From NCBI GenBank assembly GCA_021798195.1, contig JAJZYH010000009.1:56-64055 (forward strand): a stretch of 64,000 nucleotides of DNA, written 5' to 3'. This DNA comes from Thermoplasmata archaeon (GTDB taxonomy: Archaea > Thermoplasmatota > Thermoplasmata > Lutacidiplasmatales > UBA184). Within the stretch, counting starts at the first letter, position 1; each line of letters starts with the position of its first letter. Below the pieces are notes generated by a model. That model saw only the letters and a program-made list of their open reading frames with translations. It did not search any database and was not told the DNA's origin. The position numbers and the translations under genes were made by a program. Below are positions 1 to 38,157 of this stretch, piece after piece.

Positions 1-317
1 TGTCCTACCGAACCCCCCTACCGGAGGTGGCGATGTTCACTTTCCCCCTTTCCAAGGTCTCTGGAGAACCCCACTCTCCGGGTCCGTCCCTCTCCCACGA
101 ACCGCGGTGGAGGGTCCTGGTTGACGAGGGATGACACCGGAGCGTGTGGGGCGTGGGGTTGGCGTTGGTCCGGCGTCGGCCACAAGCAACGGACCAGTCC
201 CTTCCCGACGATAGTTTCATGGGGACGCCCATCCATCTATCTCCGCATGTTGGGGCGAGCCCTTCCTTCTCATCGGCCGTGGGGCCCTCTCTCACCGCGC
301 TGGCCGTGGTGATCTCC

Positions 318-944
318 ATGGAGGGGCGGGTGGAGGGAGAGCGGGGAGACCATCCATCGGCACCGGTGAGTGAACCCCCCAGTACCTCGGAAAGTCCCCG
401 GCGGCTCATCGCGAAGGTCATCCTCCTGGGAGATGGAGCCGTGGGGAAGACCAGCCTCATCTCCCGCTATGTGTTCTCCATGTTCGATCCGCACTACGTG
501 GAGACGCTGGGGACCAATGTCACGGCGCGACAGGAGCGGGTGGAGACCCCCGAAGGGACCCTCGATGTCCGGCTGCAGATATGGGACGTGATCGGCCAGG
601 AGCGCTTCGACTCCATCTATATGGCGTACTATCAGGAGGCGGACGGAGCCCTCCTGGTCTGCGATGGGACCCGAAGGGAGACCCTGGACGGGATCTCGGG
701 CTGGCTCCATTCCGCGGAGGTGATCCTGGGGAAGTTCCCGGCGGTGTTCGCCATCAACAAGAGCGACCTACCCCCTGCGTTCCTGGCAAAGGATGTGGAA
801 GGCCGCCTCCGGGAGATTTCCCACGGGCAGTTCGCGGGGAGCCCGGTCTACAGTGTGAGCGCACGGACCGGAGAGAATGTTCGAACTGTGTTCCAGGAAC
901 TCACCCGGGCCGTCCTGGAGAGGCGGGGCATCCGGCTGGTCTGA
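318..944 (+). CDS. Ras-superfamily small GTPase (Rab/Ras-like) with a short N-terminal extension
   Basis: G1 GDGAVGKTS, G3 WDVIGQERF, G4 NKSD and G5 SAR motifs are readable in the translation. An internal ATG at 318 (MEGRVEG...) is preferred over the ORF start at 144. Confidence 0.6.
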   Translation: MEGRVEGERGDHPSAPVSEPPSTSESPRRLIAKVILLGDGAVGKTSLISRYVFSMFDPHYVETLGTNVTARQERVETPEGTLDVRLQIWDVIGQERFDSIYMAYYQEADGALLVCDGTRRETLDGISGWLHSAEVILGKFPAVFAINKSDLPPAFLAKDVEGRLREISHGQFAGSPVYSVSARTGENVRTVFQELTRAVLERRGIRLV

Positions 945-32673: not shown

Positions 32674-34146
32674 TTGGGACGTGGCCCGTTGCGAGCTCCC
32701 CCGGCGACGTTGGATCTGGAGGACGAGGACCTGCCGGTGGCCGAGGCCATCGCGAACCTCCTGGAGACCGCCCGACGGCGCCGGGAGGTCCGGGGGATCT
32801 CCTCCGGCCGTCCCGCGTTCCGCCTCTCGGAGCTACGGCAGGAGCTCCTGCGGGGAAGGGTCTTCGAGGACCCGGCCCGTCTCCTGGCCCGCCTCCGACG
32901 TCGGGGACTTCTGGAGGAGGCGACCTCGGGTCGCGGCGACCGCCTCTACGTGGCCCCGGCCGCGGAGGAGCTCCTGGGGCTCCTGCACCGGGCCACCCTT
33001 GCGGAGCCTCCCGTGCCGGCCCCGACCCCCGGTCCCATGGCGCCGGACGAGGCGGCGGAGATCCAGGACATGGATGCCGCGTTCTTCGTGTACCTCCGCG
33101 ACCTCCTGGAGAATCGGCGGGAGGAGGCGCTGGAGTTCGCCCGGGGGTTCCACCTCGAGGCGCTCCTCGAGTACACCCGGGAACTCTTCGGGGAGGATCT
33201 CTACCTGGACCTTGCCCTCTCGCTCCTGCAGCAATACGCCCTCGCCGACGTGCCGCTCCTCGCGCCCAACGGCCGCACCACCGGCACCACGGGTTTCCAC
33301 CTGGCCCTGTTCGGGCCCCCCGGGACCGGGAAGAGCTTCGCCATCGACGACCTCATCCGGGGGAATCCCAAGTCGGGCGTCCCGCCCCACGGGCTGCCGG
33401 GGCGGAACCGCTACTGCGGTGGGATCACCCCGGCGCAGTTCCTGCGGGTGGGTTCCTACTACCGGGGACGCACGTTCAACTTCATCGTCCCGGAGTTCAA
33501 TGACTGGTTCAAGTACCGGGGCATGGTGGAACCCCTCAAGCTCGTCATGGAACAGCGGGAGGTCAAATGGGAGACGACCTTCGGGACCGTGGGACCGTAC
33601 ACGTTCCGCTCCTACTTCTCGGTGAACTACAACGTCCGGGTGGCGGGAGGGAGCGACTACTGGACCACCATCGCGGACCCCAACTTCGCGGCATTGGAGG
33701 ATCGCATGCTGCTGCGCTTCCATCTCATGACCCGGGACCGCTTCCGGGCGGTGGAAGAGAGCGCCCAGCGCCTGGAGCTGGGGGAGATCGACTTTTCGTT
33801 GGCCGAGCGGATCCGGGACCATCTCACCTTGGTCTACGCCATCCAGACGAGGCACCCCCTGGTCTCCCGGTGGAACCTCCGCCCCGTGGCGCTGAGCCGC
33901 CGTCTTTACGACCGTCTGGGGGAGGTCTCCCAGAAGGCCCTCGCACGGACCGAACATCCCAAGTTCTCCCCCCGGCTCAAGGGGAGAGCGGTGAAGCTGG
34001 CCGCGGCGGGCGCGCTGGTGGGGTATTTTGCCCATGAGGAGGAGAAAGGGGCCCTTCCGGTGGGAAGGGCGGAAGAGGAGCTCGCCCGCCGGTTCTACGC
34101 CGAGGAGATCGAGGCCCGGGAAGGGCGCCGGTTCGGGTCCGCCTGA
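32674..34146 (+). CDS. Uncharacterised P-loop NTPase (AAA+-like; Walker A GPPGTGKS) with a roughly 200-aa N-terminal helical domain
   Basis: FHLALFGPPGTGKSFAIDDL Walker A; the putative Walker B NFIVPEF is atypical. No confident family assignment. Confidence 0.55.
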   Translation: MGRGPLRAPPATLDLEDEDLPVAEAIANLLETARRRREVRGISSGRPAFRLSELRQELLRGRVFEDPARLLARLRRRGLLEEATSGRGDRLYVAPAAEELLGLLHRATLAEPPVPAPTPGPMAPDEAAEIQDMDAAFFVYLRDLLENRREEALEFARGFHLEALLEYTRELFGEDLYLDLALSLLQQYALADVPLLAPNGRTTGTTGFHLALFGPPGTGKSFAIDDLIRGNPKSGVPPHGLPGRNRYCGGITPAQFLRVGSYYRGRTFNFIVPEFNDWFKYRGMVEPLKLVMEQREVKWETTFGTVGPYTFRSYFSVNYNVRVAGGSDYWTTIADPNFAALEDRMLLRFHLMTRDRFRAVEESAQRLELGEIDFSLAERIRDHLTLVYAIQTRHPLVSRWNLRPVALSRRLYDRLGEVSQKALARTEHPKFSPRLKGRAVKLAAAGALVGYFAHEEEKGALPVGRAEEELARRFYAEEIEAREGRRFGSA

Positions 34147-34276
34147 TGCCCCGGGCGCCGCCCCCTCCCTGGAGCCGGGAGGCGGGCCCGCCTACCGGAT
34201 CCCCCCCGCGGACCTGGTGGCGTCCCTCGCGCAGCGGGAGCTTCGCGCCGCTCGCAAGGAAGCCCCGACCCAGGCG

Positions 34277-34585
34277 ATGATCCACCGCTCGGTGGAGGCC
34301 CGGCTCCGCGAGGAGGATCCCACCTTCCGGCTGGGCCCCGCGCGCCTGCGCTCCATCCTCCTCCGGTCTCCCCGGGTCTCGGTCCGGATCCAGTATGCCC
34401 AGAGGGCGGGCCGAAGGCCACTGCAATCGTGCCCGGTCTGCGGGGAGGAGATCCGCCCCTTGAGGAACCAAACCCTCGAGGGCGATACCGTCATCCTGGG
34501 CTGGCGGTGCACCCGATGCCCCTTCTGGACGCCCGTCCGCCGGCGCGTCCCGGCCCGCTACGCCTTCCGGTGGGTGGGGCGGTGA
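34277..34585 (+). CDS. Small basic protein with a C-terminal C4 zinc ribbon
   Basis: CPVCGEEIRPL...WRCTRCPFW. The start is uncertain (ATG 34277, or GTG 34217). Confidence 0.35.
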   Translation: MIHRSVEARLREEDPTFRLGPARLRSILLRSPRVSVRIQYAQRAGRRPLQSCPVCGEEIRPLRNQTLEGDTVILGWRCTRCPFWTPVRRRVPARYAFRWVGR

Positions 34586-34633
34586 CGGGCCCGGGACCAT
34601 CCAGGCCCCCCGGGGAGACGCGCGAGTCTCCCC

Positions 34634-35617
34634 TCACTGGACCGAGTTCATCACGGCCATGCGGTTCGCATCCACGAGGAGGATCGTCTGGGCGCCCTTC
34701 CGGTCGAACGTGAAGTACCAGATGGGGACGTGCAGGAGCTCCCCGTCGGTCGCCTGGAGCTGGGTCTGGATCTGCTCGATCATCCGGTGCTGCTGGTGCG
34801 CCTTCTCCGCCTGGATCTGGGTCACGTAGTTCTTGGCCGCGTACTGCGCGGCATCCTCGCCCACGTCGCCGTTGAGCACGGGGGCATTGGGGGGAAGGCG
34901 TCGCTTGTCGAAGAGTTGGCGGCTCCCCAGGTCGAACTGGTAGTCGTGGGGCTGGTACTTCTGCAGCCCCTGGATGGCGATCACGGGGTACTCGTACTGG
35001 CCGGCGAGCTCCGCCGCGCGCTGGGCGCTCTGCCCCCCGCCTCCCATCCCCATGCCCATTCCCATGGCCATGGGCATCATGAGGAAGCCGCCGCCCCGGC
35101 GCCCGCCCCCCAGCATGCCCCCCACCAGCGCCACCGCGGCGAGGCTTCCTCCCACCTCGGCCGCCTGGACCGCCACGTCATTGTAGACGTAGTGGGTCAC
35201 CGCCGAGACGGGGATCACCCAGAAGGGGACCACCGACATCTTGGCCTCCACGAGCTTCGACTCCTCGTACACGTGCCGGTGGAGGAGTCCCTGGTCCATC
35301 CAGTGCTGACAGACCGAGAGGGCCTGGGCCTGGTCCGGGATCTTGGGGACCAGCATGGAGTGGTTCTGGATCGCCTTCCAGGCGCCCTGGGATAGGGCCA
35401 CCGGCGTCCCGCAGTACTCGCAGGTCACCACCATCTCCCCGGGTTGCGGGGTGAGCGGAGCGCCACAGGACTGGCACTTGAGGTCCCGTGGGGGGGTGGC
35501 GGCGGGAGGGGCCGGGCTCTGGGACCGGCCCGGAACCGGCGTGCCGCACTTGTAGCAGAACTGGGCGCCCGGCGGCAACGACGTTCCGCAACGGATGCAG
35601 AAGGTGGCTCCCGACAT
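34634..35617 (-). CDS. Double-zinc-ribbon protein with a C-terminal uncharacterised domain (YdjG-like)
   Basis: CIRCGTSLPPGAQFCYKCGTPV and CQSCGAPL...CEYCGTPV ribbons, a Gly/Met-rich low-complexity linker, then a conserved-looking C-terminal domain. Confidence 0.5.
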   Translation of the reverse strand: MSGATFCIRCGTSLPPGAQFCYKCGTPVPGRSQSPAPPAATPPRDLKCQSCGAPLTPQPGEMVVTCEYCGTPVALSQGAWKAIQNHSMLVPKIPDQAQALSVCQHWMDQGLLHRHVYEESKLVEAKMSVVPFWVIPVSAVTHYVYNDVAVQAAEVGGSLAAVALVGGMLGGGRRGGGFLMMPMAMGMGMGMGGGGQSAQRAAELAGQYEYPVIAIQGLQKYQPHDYQFDLGSRQLFDKRRLPPNAPVLNGDVGEDAAQYAAKNYVTQIQAEKAHQQHRMIEQIQTQLQATDGELLHVPIWYFTFDRKGAQTILLVDANRMAVMNSVQ

Positions 35618-35623
35618 TTCGGT

Positions 35624-36802
35624 TCAGGTGACGGGCGCCCCGCAGTTGGGGCAGAATTTCACGTTGGGGGGGATGGGAGCCTGGCATTTGGCGCATGCCC
35701 GGGGAGCCGGCGGAGGCGGCGGGGCCGCCATGGGGTTCCCGCAGTTGGGGCAGAACTTGGCCCCCGCGGCGACCGGTGTCCCGCATTTGGGGCACGGGAC
35801 CGCTCCTCCCGCCGCGGCCGGCGGAGGCGCCGGAGCATCCTGGGGGGAACCGCACGCCGGGCAGAACCGGCTGCCGGCCGGGACGAGAGCGCCACACCGT
35901 ACGCAGGGTCGGGACCCGCCGGCGTACTGCTGCGGGCCCATCTGCCCCATCATGCCGTATCCCATGGACATCCCCGCCCCCAGCCCCACGCCGAGGCCGG
36001 CCACGGAGCCCGCGCCTCCTGGATTCGTGGCGGCGTCCACCATCGCCTGTCCCGCCTGGTACTGCATGTAGTTCACCCCCAGTACGCCCATGCTGGACCG
36101 GGTGTCCACCGCCTTCTGCACGTTATCGGGGAGGTTGATGGACAGCCCCTGCAACCGGTTGATCTCGATGCCGTAAGCGTTGAAGAAGTCCGGGGCCTTC
36201 GCCAGCACCATCTGCTCGAGGGTGGGGAGCTTCGCGGCGAGGTCGGTCACCCGCAGGCCCTGGTCCTTCGCCTGTCCCAGGGCGGCGTACACCAGGAGGA
36301 CCATCTGGTCCCGGAGGCGGTCGTCCACATCCGCCGTGGCCTCCGCCCCGAAGGTCCCGATGAACTGGGTGATGAAGTTGTCCGGATGGGAGACGCGCCA
36401 CCGGTAATCCCCGAACACCCGGAGGCTCACGATGCCGAAATCCGGGTCCCGGAACGTGTACGGCTCCTTGGACCCGAACTTCCCGTCGAAGAACCGGCGC
36501 TGGATGTAGTAGACCTCGGCCTGCTGCTGGACCCCGCTCAGGGCCTGGACCAGCTTCCCCACGACGGGGGCGTTGAGGGACGTGAGCGCATACCGGTCCG
36601 GTCGGTCGATGTAGGCGAGCACCTTCCCGTCGCGGAAGAACACCGCGTATTCGTCCTCCCGGACGACGATGTTGTCGTTGAGACGGATGTTGCGGGGCAC
36701 CCGCCACATCACGTTGGGGCCCTTGTAGGCGTCCTCCCAGATGATGGTGGTCGCTCCGCCGAAGATGCTTCCCTTCCCCACGCCCTGAACTCGACCCGCC
36801 AT
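35624..36802 (-). CDS. SPFH/Band-7-like protein of the YdjI (PF13421-like) type with three C-terminal zinc ribbons
   Basis: An N-terminal region resembling the YdjI SPFH-like domain, then CVRCGALVPAGSRFCPACG, CPKCGTPVAAGAKFCPNCG and CAKCQAPIPPNVKFCPNCG. Confidence 0.65.
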   Translation of the reverse strand: MAGRVQGVGKGSIFGGATTIIWEDAYKGPNVMWRVPRNIRLNDNIVVREDEYAVFFRDGKVLAYIDRPDRYALTSLNAPVVGKLVQALSGVQQQAEVYYIQRRFFDGKFGSKEPYTFRDPDFGIVSLRVFGDYRWRVSHPDNFITQFIGTFGAEATADVDDRLRDQMVLLVYAALGQAKDQGLRVTDLAAKLPTLEQMVLAKAPDFFNAYGIEINRLQGLSINLPDNVQKAVDTRSSMGVLGVNYMQYQAGQAMVDAATNPGGAGSVAGLGVGLGAGMSMGYGMMGQMGPQQYAGGSRPCVRCGALVPAGSRFCPACGSPQDAPAPPPAAAGGAVPCPKCGTPVAAGAKFCPNCGNPMAAPPPPPAPRACAKCQAPIPPNVKFCPNCGAPVT

Positions 36803-36826
36803 GGTTCCCGATCTCTCCTTCGCCGT

Positions 36827-37513
36827 CTACTGCAGGATCCCTTCCACCGCCCGCACGCGGTCGGAGAAGCTCGACTCCAGGGTCCGGAGAGCATCGCGGA
36901 GGGTTCCCAGGGCCGTGGTCACCCCGGCGTTGTCCCGGGCCTGTTCCGCGGTCATCAGGGGACCCAGAGCGGAGACGATCCCGTCGGCCGATGCGAGGAA
37001 CGTATAGTCCAGTTCATACAGGCGGTCCAGCGTCGAGGGGCTGATGCGGATCGCGGGGGAAAGGCCCGTGTATCCCTGCTCCGCATGCCGGATCTGCCCC
37101 TCGAGGCGCTGGATCAAGCTTCGGATGCCGCCCAAGGCCTCGAGCCCATTGATCATGCCGTTCTGGACCATGTCCGAACGGAGGTCGTCCACCTTCTGCA
37201 TGGCCTTCACCAGGCGGTCGGCCACCTGAAGGCGGAGCATGGCGTCCGCGGCCCGGATGTCATCGCCTTGACGGTAGGCGCGGAAGCCCGGGATCATGAG
37301 CTGGAGCTTCTTGAGGAACCCCCGGTCCTGATCCACGCTCTCGCGGATGTCCGGGGGGGCTCGGGCCGCGGGAGCCGGGGAGATGAGCGCGGCCCCGCAA
37401 TTCCCGCAGAAACGCTCCCCCGGGGTCACGGGCTGGTGGCACGAGGGGCACACCGCGGCGGCAGGCCCCGCCGGAGGGGCGGCGGGGCCCGGGGGGGTGG
37501 GAGCCATCGCCAT
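36827..37513 (-). CDS. N-terminal zinc-ribbon protein with a roughly 185-aa alpha-helical domain
   Basis: CPSCHQPVTPGERFCGNCG, then a helical region. A 24-nt gap to the SPFH gene downstream. Confidence 0.5.
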   Translation of the reverse strand: MAMAPTPPGPAAPPAGPAAAVCPSCHQPVTPGERFCGNCGAALISPAPAARAPPDIRESVDQDRGFLKKLQLMIPGFRAYRQGDDIRAADAMLRLQVADRLVKAMQKVDDLRSDMVQNGMINGLEALGGIRSLIQRLEGQIRHAEQGYTGLSPAIRISPSTLDRLYELDYTFLASADGIVSALGPLMTAEQARDNAGVTTALGTLRDALRTLESSFSDRVRAVEGILQ

Positions 37514-37514
37514 C

Positions 37515-38084
37515 TCAATGGCCTCCGCTGGAGGGTGGGGTACTGGGTCCCTGGGGATTCGCGGGAGAGGAAGGGGCCGAGACGCTGGGATTGCCCAGGG
37601 CGCCGCGCTCCGCGGCGACCTTGTGCCGCCATTGCGCGCGGAGGTCTTCCCTCGCTTCCGTGGACCTGCGCCCGGACTGCGCGAACATCACGAAGGCGAG
37701 GCTGATGAGCAGGACGATGAGGATCGCCACCAGGGCGAGGACGCGGCCCGGAAGGAGGCTCAGCTGGCTGGGGGAACCTCCGAACGCGGAATCAGGGACC
37801 AATAGCGTGGAGCTCACAAGGGTGACAAAGGCGAAGGCCAGGAGGCCGTAGGCCGCCGGGCGGATCACCCGGAAGGCGTTCCGCGCCGCGGTGGCGATGA
37901 ACGACGCGATGGACAGGACAAAGGCCAGGATCCCGATCCACACCAGCGCCAGGTAGTGGTCATTGGCCGAGAGGGAAGGGACCAGATAGATGCCGTACCC
38001 CACCAGGGCGAAGATCACTACGAGAACGACGCCGGCGAGGATCGCCGGAAAAGATCCTCCGGCGGACCGTGGTTCGGTGGACAT
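37515..38084 (-). CDS. Four-TM membrane protein, first gene of the SPFH operon
   Basis: Four hydrophobic helices. The stop abuts the start of the next gene. Start taken at MSTEPRS. Confidence 0.45.
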   Translation of the reverse strand: MSTEPRSAGGSFPAILAGVVLVVIFALVGYGIYLVPSLSANDHYLALVWIGILAFVLSIASFIATAARNAFRVIRPAAYGLLAFAFVTLVSSTLLVPDSAFGGSPSQLSLLPGRVLALVAILIVLLISLAFVMFAQSGRRSTEAREDLRAQWRHKVAAERGALGNPSVSAPSSPANPQGPSTPPSSGGH

Positions 38085-38157
38085 GGGACCGCTCACCTGG
38101 AAACGGGACCTCTCTCCCTTCCTAAAAGGGCTTCCCTCATAACCATGCTGACGCACG

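Follow-up and report, generated by a model that had tools for sequence, protein, structure and literature searches.

Four genes in the 64-kb stretch of DNA analysed here (hereafter, the window) form a real, conserved operon of Thermoplasmata archaea. By analogy with Bacillus, we consider it fairly probable that their products build a sub-membrane SPFH scaffold complex, as a variant of the YdjG/H/I module that has neither PspA nor a TPM domain. This function is inferred by guilt by association, from the genomic context.

Operon organization and conservation

All four ORFs were found on the minus strand, with intergenic gaps of 1, 24 and 6 nt (Table 1), as an earlier note on this DNA had described (co-directional genes, gaps of 24 nt or less). 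Public gene calls on six MAG/assembly contigs of identical sequence gave the same genes of 189, 228, 392 and 327 aa. The gene order was kept in the Thermoplasmata loci L007-L009, where the helical protein was 44-47% and the 4-TM protein 27-29% identical, and was also present on an archaeal contig with 38% GC (L098). Because the order recurs in the divergent loci L007-L009, the arrangement is more than chance; the neighbours, whose order in related archaea had been proposed as a check, stay together in these loci and in L098. The flanking synteny was likewise conserved (HD, TPR, module, Hjc, thiolase), and GC content was even across the window.

A total of six C4 ribbons, corresponding to 12 CxxC motifs, was counted in the operon, all in the three soluble proteins, and not the "seven or more" first reported. 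Outside the operon, the upstream TPR protein ends in a seventh Cys-rich finger.

The transcript may end at the perfect hairpin that begins directly after the gene 4 stop codon; no T-run follows this hairpin and a terminator scan found nothing. Upstream of gene 1, CTTTTAGGAA and GGTGA are candidate archaeal TATA-like and Shine-Dalgarno-like elements, respectively.

Table 1. Features of the operon and its borders (positions in the window).
Feature	Position	Strand	Evidence
Gene 1: 4-TM protein, 189 aa	37515..38084	-	ORF
Gene 2: C4 zinc ribbon and helical domain, 228 aa	36827..37513	-	ORF
Gene 3: soluble Band_7_1/YdjI-family SPFH protein, 392 aa	35624..36802	-	ORF
Gene 4: YdjG-like double-zinc-ribbon protein, 327 aa	34634..35617	-	ORF
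Gene 2 zinc ribbon, residues 22-40, CPSC...CGNC	37394..37450	-	Pfam Zn_Ribbon_1, E 7.5e-07; CxxC positions
Gene 2 helical domain, residues 55-228	36830..37351	-	NCBIfam NF047596, E 7e-10, below cut-off
Gene 3 Band_7_1 SPFH domain, residues 34-240	36083..36703	-	PF13421, E 1.1e-36, 126.9 bits, cut-off 24
Gene 3 three tandem C4 ribbons	35639..35905	-	Pfam DZR and Zn_Ribbon_1, three stretches each; CxxC
Gene 4 two zinc ribbons, residues 7-25 and 48-70	35408..35599	-	Zn_Ribbon_1, E 1.4e-10; DZR, E 7e-10; CxxC
Perfect 8-bp hairpin, GGGGAGAC-tcgcgc-GTCTCCCC	34612..34633	-	Read from sequence
73-nt spacer upstream of gene 1	38085..38157	-	Read from sequence
A/T-rich CTTTTAGGAA, ~38 nt before gene 1 ATG	38119-38128	-	Read from sequence
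GGTGA, 9 nt before gene 1 ATG	38093-38097	-	Read from sequence

SPFH, YdjG-like and membrane proteins

By profile and sequence similarity, the 392-aa protein is a YdjI-type Band_7_1 SPFH protein. In addition to the Band_7_1 match, BLASTP aligned it with Bacillus stercoris YdjI (E 7e-14) over the full length, including the C-terminal ribbon and the G/M-rich linker; the initial description of a YdjI-like protein with three ribbons was thus upheld. The match to Band_7 (PF01145) was weak (E 2.5e-4), and no hydrophobic segment was found (KD maximum 1.17). The ribbons, located at residues 300-318, 337-355 and 370-388, were all kept in the orthologues of L007-L009, whereas Bacillus YdjI carries one.

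The 327-aa protein is YdjG-like according to profile comparison, in agreement with the earlier reading of the last gene as a YdjG relative with two ribbons. Its residues 2-146 aligned with residues 4-144 of Bacillus YdjG (hhalign 97%, E 1.2e-10), and a phmmer search using Bacillus YdjG as the query retrieved it at E 3.9e-6. Over all collected loci, the only matches of this query beyond the Bacillus loci were archaeal orthologues of gene 4. A C-terminal P(I/V)W...G.V motif was weakly conserved and colinear between the two proteins. The alpha/beta domain of gene 4 is split by a Gly/Met-rich, marginally hydrophobic segment (residues ~148-195; KD 1.6), modelled with low confidence (AF2 pLDDT 79.8 for the protein; below 50 at residues 151-195).

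The 189-aa protein was the sole integral membrane protein among the four products and is likely the membrane anchor of the module. It has four hydrophobic segments and a C-terminal tail rich in Pro and Ser, and contains no Cys. It matched no Pfam, NCBIfam, PADLOC or PHROG family, although orthologues occupied the same slot in L007-L009 and in L098 (HMM E 9e-10). It was also considered as a YdjH-like protein and rejected, as Pfam detected no TPM domain.

The helical protein and its bacterial neighbours

In the 228-aa protein, a Pro/Ala linker joins an N-terminal C4 ribbon to a helical domain of ~175 residues with the invariant motifs PGxRxYR..D.R.AD, RxAExGYxG and DxLYxxDxxF. The ribbon was missing in the archaeal homologue of L098 and in the listed bacterial homologues, most of which (171-181 aa) consist of the helical domain alone; this ribbon is therefore accessory. 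Profile evidence places the helical domain in a large family without characterised function, LIMLP_15305-like, and not among the PspA relatives. The NCBIfam profile of this family matched 1282 cluster representatives, and the archaeal and bacterial groups aligned with each other at 100% (hhalign, E 7e-42).

In bacteria and archaea alike, genes of the helical family are almost always found as the upstream neighbours of Band_7_1 genes. Among the bacterial metagenomic loci with enough downstream DNA, the helical gene was directly followed in 59 out of 61 by a Band_7_1-type ORF of the same strand, at a median distance of 67 nt, and Pfam confirmed Band_7_1 in 6 out of 6 sampled bacterial loci and in three NCBI MAG loci. 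Bacterial loci of this kind, with or without pspA, came from Chloroflexota/Anaerolineae, Aminicenantales and unassigned metagenome contigs. The order helical-PspA-Band_7_1 was observed in three distinct bacterial loci on four contigs (L097, L099-L101), as helical(-DUF4178)-PspA-Band_7_1 or tmz-DUF2207-helical-PspA-Band_7_1. The helical domain was also found fused N-terminally to DUF4178, and pspA followed the fusion gene in both loci examined. No description of the helical-Band_7_1 dyads or the helical-PspA-Band_7_1 triads was found in the literature searched.

The upstream slot of the bacterial loci held small multi-TM (YccF-like) or 2TM-wHTH-ZnR proteins, and the bacterial Band_7_1 partners ended in a double zinc ribbon or in HTH_17 (L015 included). 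The presence of HTH_17, a DNA-binding fold, at the end of many of these partners hints at something other than a purely scaffolding role.

Comparison with known systems

The B. subtilis pspA-ydjGHI operon was compared as described by Scholz et al. 2021 (PMC8581546) and Ravi et al. 2024 (PMC11237479). YdjI, a soluble SPFH protein, depends on YdjG and YdjH to localise to the membrane, and PspA foci require YdjI (PMC8581546); the domains of YdjG, YdjH and YdjI have been described (PMC11237479). Both operons are tight. In each, the Band_7_1 SPFH protein is soluble and has a C-terminal zinc ribbon as well as a G/M-rich linker; it is encoded together with a membrane protein and with a partner (YdjG in Bacillus) that combines two ribbons at the N-terminus with an alpha/beta domain. 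However, Pfam and hhalign detected no PspA, ESCRT-III or YdjH/TPM-like gene among the four archaeal genes, where a non-homologous 4-TM protein and the LIMLP_15305-like helical protein fill the places of pspA and ydjH. As first noticed, no canonical PspA accompanies the YdjI/YdjG-like genes, either in the operon or among the neighbours in the window. The archaeal order (TM, helical, YdjI-like, YdjG-like) also differs, three ribbons stand in the SPFH protein against the single one of YdjI, and the YdjG-like protein has an internal Gly/Met-rich segment but not the C-terminal TM of YdjG. No gene of the helical family was found in the Bacillus loci. Since PspA and the TPM-type YdjH, two of the four Bacillus components, are absent, the analogy may not carry over.

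The bacterial dyads share with the archaeal operon a homologous helical gene directly upstream of the Band_7_1 gene; further upstream, a small protein with several TM segments and a protein with ribbons are encoded. In contrast to gene 2, the bacterial helical proteins were seen without an N-terminal ribbon; their SPFH partners carry one double ribbon or HTH_17 rather than three ribbons; and their membrane partners (YccF-like, DUF2207 or 2TM-wHTH-ZnR) have no homology to the 4-TM protein of the archaeal operon, as seen for the YccF-like protein in the equivalent slot. No YdjG-type domain was detected in these bacterial loci, some of which carry an inserted pspA, unlike the archaeal operon. The beta-rich DUF4178 has already been tied to pspA in PspA-CesT/Tir-polyamine operons (Ravi et al. 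2024), whereas genes for DUF4178, CesT/Tir or polyamine metabolism are missing from the archaeal operon.

By domain content, the archaeal SPFH protein with zinc ribbon resembles the SPFH-coiled-coil-zinc-ribbon proteins of the 'Meth_adaptin' archaeal ESCRT loci; these loci encode Vps4, ESCRT-III and adaptin-like proteins, none of which is present here, and an ancient link of SPFH to ESCRT-III/PspA has been proposed (Makarova et al. 2024, PMC11188069). HflK/C-FtsH, stomatin/QmcA-NfeD and flotillin FloT/FloA-NfeD share the SPFH domain, and an oligomeric membrane-associated scaffold would be expected in each case; however, the operon SPFH protein belongs to another family (PF13421) and has no TM or hairpin anchor, NfeD or protease.

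Alternative readings

The module is unlikely to be a membrane-sequestered nucleic-acid-binding or regulatory switch, in which the ribbons (HTH_17 in bacteria) of the SPFH protein and its partners would bind DNA, RNA or a transcription factor and membrane status would control release, in the manner of PspF control by PspA. Such a switch would fit the double ribbon or HTH_17 of the bacterial Band_7_1 partners, the 2TM-wHTH-ZnR protein, the match of the first YdjG ribbon to the TFIIB-type Zn_Ribbon_TF model and the regulatory role suggested by Popp et al. However, the operon ribbons match the generic Zn_Ribbon_1 and DZR models, Pfam and NCBIfam detected no DNA-binding domain in any of the four archaeal proteins, and B. 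subtilis YdjI works in PspA localisation, not transcription. In our reading, ribbons of the Zn_Ribbon_1/DZR type more often mediate protein contacts, which also counts against a switch.

We consider it very unlikely that the 228-aa protein replaces the missing PspA as a strongly diverged polymer of the PspA/ESCRT-III type that remodels membranes. It is all-helical in the AF2 model (pLDDT 78.6), its gene sits in a YdjI/YdjG operon without PspA, and the association of its family with Band_7_1 is about as tight as that of PspA in Firmicutes. However, the pattern of the five helices (18, 41, 19, 33 and 33 residues) is not that of the long alpha1-alpha2/3 hairpin, for which a structure prediction had been suggested, and hhalign showed no similarity to Bacillus PspA (0.2%) or YdjH (0.1%). 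The earlier candidacy as a PspA/ESCRT-III- or YdjH-like component found no support. The helical domain had no Pfam match even at E ≤ 10, where Bacillus PspA scored E 2e-41 in the same library, and a profile search of PDB sequences gave ribbon matches only. Foldseek against the PDB placed no PspA, Vipp1 or ESCRT-III structure among the best 50 of 771 matches, none of which reached E ≤ 0.001 (best 0.047). Moreover, the helical gene adjoins a true pspA in L097 and L099-L101, which argues for different roles and against a stand-in for PspA.

A role in antiviral defence or conflict, with the SPFH scaffold as a sensor of membrane perturbation by infection, appears scarcely probable. PspA first came to notice as a protein induced by phage, one bacterial module (L016) contains an inserted HEPN-nucleotidyltransferase pair, NERD genes lie near the modules of L014 and L015, and there are ribbon-only PHROG matches; nevertheless, no PADLOC family was found for the four proteins or two neighbours, the module lies in conserved chromosomal synteny of uniform GC content and not in a variable island, and no nuclease, protease or NTPase effector was detected in the operon (Pfam, NCBIfam). 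Very unlikely, too, is a unit for proteolysis or quality control under SPFH governance, as in HflK/C-FtsH or stomatin-NfeD: many prokaryotic SPFH genes are paired with NfeD or a protease, and an Rce1-like CAAX protease gene lies directly downstream in one bacterial locus (L033), but neither the operon nor its conserved neighbours contain NfeD, FtsH or another protease domain, and Band_7_1 proteins are devoid of the TM anchor of HflK/C and stomatin.

Proposed role

In the favoured reading, a sub-membrane scaffold complex, the SPFH protein would, like others of its kind, form oligomers at the cytoplasmic side of the membrane and would be tethered there by the 4-TM and YdjG-like proteins, the latter contributing its Gly/Met-rich hydrophobic loop. 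The helical protein would be a dedicated partner bound by the SPFH protein, as a regulator, cap or adaptor. The three soluble proteins carry between them six ribbons of a single Pfam type, which would serve as accessory interaction modules; bacterial homologues were observed without these ribbons, or with HTH_17 instead. The link to the PSP network suggested earlier gained independent support from the bacterial relatives of the helical protein in helical-PspA-Band_7_1 operons, and the complex may recruit an effector of the ESCRT-III/PspA type whose gene would lie elsewhere in the genome. If the analogy with B. subtilis YdjI carries over, the complex would help to keep the membrane organised or protected during envelope stress.

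Organization and conservation of the operon

The operon consists of four co-directional genes on the minus strand, as the earlier note had described, with inter-gene spacers of 1, 24 and 6 nt according to the ORF coordinates, in a window with a G+C content of about 70% throughout. In order of transcription, the genes encode a four-transmembrane (4-TM) protein, a protein carrying a C4 zinc ribbon and a helical domain (the helical protein), an SPFH protein, and a YdjG-like protein. The 392-aa product was found to be identical on 24 public contigs, and the same four gene calls were made on six of those contigs displayed, from Thermoplasmata-type MAGs such as GCA_027378575.1. The named homologues of the operon proteins likewise come from "Thermoplasmata archaeon" MAGs. 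A total of six ribbons was counted in the operon, and not the seven or more first claimed; a seventh cysteine-rich finger is located at the C-terminus of an upstream 1445-aa TPR protein.

Location of the operon genes and of associated features (positions in the window, unless a locus is named)
Feature	Location	Strand	Description
189-aa ORF	37515-38084	-	No Cys, four hydrophobic segments
228-aa ORF	36827-37513	-	Single C4 ribbon followed by a ~175-residue helical region
392-aa ORF	35624-36802	-	Band_7_1, G/M-rich linker, three C4 ribbons
Gly/Met-rich stretch, SPFH protein	35933-36019	-	Residues 262-290, low complexity
327-aa ORF	34634-35617	-	Two C4 ribbons, then ~250 further residues
Gly/Met-rich stretch, YdjG-like protein	35033-35176	-	Residues ~165-195, low complexity
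Convergent ORF, 3' of operon	34028-34585	+	Called 102-122 aa across assemblies; no family match
490-aa protein	32674-34146	+	Walker-A-like GPPGTGKS; no Pfam or NCBIfam match
GNAT acetyltransferase, 330 aa	38158-39150	-	Between TPR gene and operon
TPR protein, 1445 aa	39286-43623	-	5' of operon
TPR protein, divergent Thermoplasmata loci	L007:2784-5348; L008:862-5379; L009:682-5235		Gene directly adjoins operon
Small GTPase domain, Ras/Roc type	135-944	+	Pfam Ras, E = 3.6e-29
172-aa protein, bacterial MAG loci	L014:5458-5976; L015:5406-5924; L016:4114-4632		Two N-terminal TM segments, winged-helix-like middle, C-terminal ribbon
HEPN and nucleotidyltransferase pair, bacterial MAG locus	L016:5231-5956		Toxin-antitoxin type; between membrane-protein genes and helical gene
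Helical-DUF4178 fusions, bacterial contigs (P0366, P0300)	L097:345-1361; L099:702-1721		Next gene pspA

Three divergent Thermoplasmata loci (L007-L009), selected by means of homologues of the helical protein (44-47% identity), each presented the same succession of genes, encoding a small TM protein, a ribbon/helical protein, a Band_7_1 protein with ribbons, and a double-ribbon protein. The SPFH proteins of the window and of these loci shared 68-73% identity, and the TM proteins merely 27-29%. The same four genes were also present on an archaeal contig of 38% G+C (L098), where the helical protein is devoid of a ribbon. The four-gene cluster can thus be regarded as a conserved unit, gene order having been kept across these archaea, and the ribbon of the helical protein as accessory.

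The 73-nt spacer 5' of the 189-aa gene contains an A/T-rich CTTTTAGGAA and GGTGA, and a perfect 8-bp hairpin lies just 3' of the stop codon of the 327-aa gene; both elements were read from the sequence, and their roles are putative. A scan for sigma-70 promoters and intrinsic terminators was uninformative, the host being an archaeon.

Among the surrounding genes, the one encoding the TPR protein was found upstream of the operon, and in the same orientation, in all the Thermoplasmata loci examined. Two elements of this protein are conserved: a C-terminal Cys-rich finger, CxxC-x14-CxxC-x6-CxxC, which spans residues 1368-1399 in the window, and a tail at the very C-terminus, D-E-(A/P)-R-L. The protein may have a functional link with the module, but bacterial versions of the module occur without it. 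The GNAT gene was specific to the lineage of the window and absent from L007-L009. An Hjc resolvase gene was identified by Pfam near the operon, which, together with the named homologues, makes an archaeal origin a reasonable assignment. In eight of the archaeal loci compared (L001-L007 and L009), the place of the 490-aa protein between the operon and this resolvase gene is taken by proteins of 484-491 aa that likewise have no Pfam match; the 490-aa protein may be an unclassified P-loop NTPase.

The SPFH and YdjG-like proteins

The 392-aa protein matched PF13421 (Band_7_1) with an E-value of 1.1e-36 and a score of 126.9 bits (cut-off 24) over residues 34-240 (profile positions 3-211 of 211), while Bacillus YdjI scored E = 2.3e-43 against the same library. 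A BLASTP alignment with Bacillus YdjI (E = 7e-14, 23% identity over 337 columns, residues 17-345 versus 9-323) spanned the SPFH domain, the G/M-rich linker and the C-terminal zinc ribbon. Its identification as a YdjI-type protein with three ribbons is therefore confirmed, whereas Bacillus YdjI has only one. The highest Kyte-Doolittle mean over 19 residues was 1.17, with no stretch reaching 1.6, and the protein is thus predicted to be soluble and to lack a transmembrane anchor. No solved Band_7_1 relative was retrieved by a sequence search of the PDB, in which the sole match, 9sfa, concerned a ribbon only. A tblastn search of plasmids returned only bacterial SPFH genes of about 30% identity, with poor annotation.

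The 327-aa protein contains CxxC motifs at residues 7, 21, 48 and 66, which form two N-terminal C4 ribbons (Pfam Zn_Ribbon_1 and DZR), and both were aligned by hhalign with the two ribbons of Bacillus YdjG. The match between the family profile and YdjG (97%, E = 1.2e-10) ended at residue 146 and so took in both ribbons and the initial ~75 residues of the domain after them. The post-ribbon domain alone gave a weaker, colinear match (E = 3e-4, residues 91-138 versus 98-146), and a weak match of the C-terminal PxW motif (E = 0.005-0.008) was colinear with it. In a phmmer search of all loci compared, YdjG matched, outside the Bacillus loci, archaeal orthologues only (E = 3.9e-6). The post-ribbon alpha/beta domain is a candidate homologue of the corresponding YdjG domain. 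A fold search of the PDB with the YdjG-like domain yielded no match, YpeB appearing merely at E = 7.4.

Bacillus YdjG ends in a TM helix, ...WFSGIAGGTFLALKLVSLMMGGGF, whereas hydropathy analysis revealed no C-terminal hydrophobic segment in the archaeal protein. Its sole TM candidate is internal and marginally hydrophobic (residues 148-166, Kyte-Doolittle mean 1.60), within a Gly/Met-rich stretch modelled with low confidence by AF2. The N-terminus of this gene was called variably between assemblies (266, 314, 318 or 327 aa); among these variants, the 327-aa form alone retains the first ribbon and agrees with the orthologues.

The Gly/Met-rich stretch of the YdjG-like protein (...GMGMGMGMGGGG) and that of the SPFH protein resemble those found in the linker of Bacillus YdjI and at the C-termini of YdjG and YdjH. 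Such stretches look like a feature common to the YdjGHI-type system.

Comparison with the Bacillus pspA-ydjGHI operon

The pspA-ydjGHI locus of Bacillus stercoris, retrieved through an exact match to a published ydjG primer, was used as the reference, and its PspA, YdjH (TPM) and YdjI proteins were all detected by Pfam as positive controls. PF04012 (PspA_IM30) matched none of the four operon proteins, five neighbours and ten other small proteins of the window. Moreover, pspA was not among the gene calls up to 10 kb on either side of the operon, and a phmmer search of the six-frame translated window with Bacillus PspA returned nothing, in agreement with the earlier note, which had reported no canonical PspA. 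PF04536 (TPM) matched no protein of the operon, its neighbours or the ten other small window proteins but gave E = 1e-23 with Bacillus YdjH, and phmmer with YdjH found nothing outside the Bacillus loci. The 189-aa protein was also ruled out as a YdjH by Pfam and phmmer. On the basis of these profile and homology searches, YdjI and YdjG of the Bacillus system are represented in the operon, and PspA and YdjH are missing from it. In B. subtilis, membrane localization of YdjI requires YdjG and YdjH, and YdjI is required for the formation of PspA foci (PMC8581546).

Identity of the helical protein

The AF2 model of the 228-aa protein (pLDDT 78.6) comprises five helices. This protein had been put forward as the missing PspA/ESCRT-III-like or YdjH-like component, a proposal that was not borne out. 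No Pfam family matched the helical domain at E ≤ 10, the hhalign probability was 0.2% against Bacillus PspA and 0.1% against YdjH, a sequence profile search of the PDB yielded ribbon matches only, and the best Foldseek match in the PDB had an E-value of 0.047, with no ESCRT-III/PspA fold among the 50 matches listed. We therefore rank lower the explanation that the helical protein is a diverged PspA.

A match was obtained with NCBIfam NF047596 ("LIMLP_15305 family protein"; E = 7e-10, 39 bits, residues 64-219 versus profile positions 19-169 of 175). As this score is far under the equivalog cut-off of 210 bits, the 228-aa protein is a distant superfamily member and not an equivalog. Bacterial relatives scored E = 1e-8 to 1e-17 against the same profile, and the archaeal and bacterial groups, which have motifs in common, were aligned by hhalign over 173 columns (100%, E = 7.4e-42). 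A search with the helical-domain profile against 1.84 billion cluster representatives (50% clustering) retrieved 1282 representatives at E ≤ 1e-3, of which 681 reached E ≤ 1e-10; among the matches listed, stand-alone proteins of 171-181 aa were in the majority. The named bacterial members belong to Anaerolineae/Chloroflexota and Aminicenantales MAGs. In the literature, Leptospira LIMLP_15305 is named only as the flank of a small RNA, in a transcriptome table; neither that table nor the comparative-genomics papers on PSP, the only sources found, describe the family as a Band_7_1 neighbour.

Genomic neighbourhoods of the helical family

The helical gene lies upstream of the SPFH gene in the window, with a 24-nt gap, and likewise upstream of Band_7_1 in L007-L009 and L098. 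It was also directly 5' of a Band_7_1 gene in three bacterial MAG loci (L014-L016). This adjacency is a feature defined here. A metagenome scan with a closer set of helical homologues provided 80 loci, 61 of them with at least 400 nt downstream. A Band_7_1-type ORF followed directly on the same strand in 59 of these 61 loci (median distance 67 nt), and all six downstream ORFs that were sampled matched PF13421 (E = 1e-55 to 1e-60), each ending in HTH_17 or a double ribbon. Overall, the helical family is large and uncharacterized, and in the loci sampled it is the most constant genomic neighbour of Band_7_1 genes. The HTH_17 variants prompted the alternative of a membrane-sequestered nucleic-acid-binding switch, which we also rank lower than an SPFH-based membrane function.

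Upstream of the helical gene, a 2TM-wHTH-ribbon protein was encoded in 27 of 55 loci, and genes for YccF-like 4-TM proteins and DUF2207 proteins were also present in bacterial loci. Homology between the archaeal 4-TM protein and the YccF-like protein at the same position was rejected (hhalign 0.15%), leaving them as positional analogues only. In the longer members of the family, the helical domain is fused to DUF4178, a domain linked to pspA operons (PMC11237479). In both fusion loci examined, the fusion gene was followed by pspA and then by Band_7_1, which is a partial ORF at the contig end in L097. The fusion is a domain-fusion link between two uncharacterized PSP-associated modules. A further pair of contigs had the order 2TM-wHTH-ribbon, DUF2207, helical, PspA, Band_7_1. 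From the loci combining helical, pspA and Band_7_1 genes, it follows that the helical family recurs as a third member of PspA/Band_7_1 neighbourhoods, beside PspA and not replacing it.

The 172-aa protein of L014-L016 showed weak PCI and TrmB matches in its middle part, and its ribbon, CPNCGG...GKGVV.CPYCG, is similar to ribbon 2 of the YdjG-like protein; the 172-aa protein may be a counterpart of YdjG. In L014 and L015, NERD-domain genes were observed 3' of the module.

Proposed role of the operon

The operon is real and its YdjI/YdjG reading correct, while a PspA-like identity for the helical protein is unsupported. To our knowledge, the YdjI type is the least understood SPFH class, with functional data from one Bacillus operon only, in which YdjI connects PspA to the membrane. 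The function proposed here for the operon is inferred entirely from genomic context, namely an operon in which the gene for a soluble SPFH protein is accompanied by those for a single integral membrane protein, a homologue of YdjG and a family-specific helical partner. SPFH proteins build large membrane-associated oligomers, as cited in PMC11188069, and a minimal ESCRT system is present in some Thermoplasmata (PMC11188069). The 4-TM and YdjG-like proteins would hold an SPFH oligomer against the cytoplasmic side of the membrane, where the helical protein could bind it as a regulator, cap or adaptor, with the zinc ribbons as accessory contact modules. Such a complex might organize the membrane or protect it under stress, perhaps in concert with an ESCRT-III/PspA protein whose gene lies outside the operon.

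Two other explanations are ranked lower than this membrane role. As regards a defence system, PADLOC gave 0 families at E ≤ 0.01 for the four operon proteins and for two neighbouring ones, and PHROG matches were confined to the ribbons. An SPFH-protease unit is at odds with the lack of a protease in the operon, NfeD and protease partner domains being absent from the operon and its neighbours according to Pfam and gene calls.

A broader reading, which we consider rather unlikely, is that the helical domain is an unrecognized core component of an ancient SPFH membrane-maintenance machine of bacteria and archaea, acting as a dedicated adaptor or effector of the YdjI-type SPFH ring, coupled to PspA/ESCRT-III where present and otherwise autonomous. 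If this were true, the archaeal four-gene operon would be a self-contained, PspA-independent system of membrane repair or remodelling.

Taken as a whole, the analysis shows that YdjI and YdjG occur together in a conserved operon of Thermoplasmata as well, without PspA or a TPM protein. These results provide a concrete, testable hypothesis on the binding partner of soluble SPFH scaffolds, as well as a functional handle on a family so far labelled "LIMLP_15305 family protein" or "hypothetical". Comparative-genomic throughout, they also add a data point for the proposed ancient link between SPFH and ESCRT-III/PspA in archaea.
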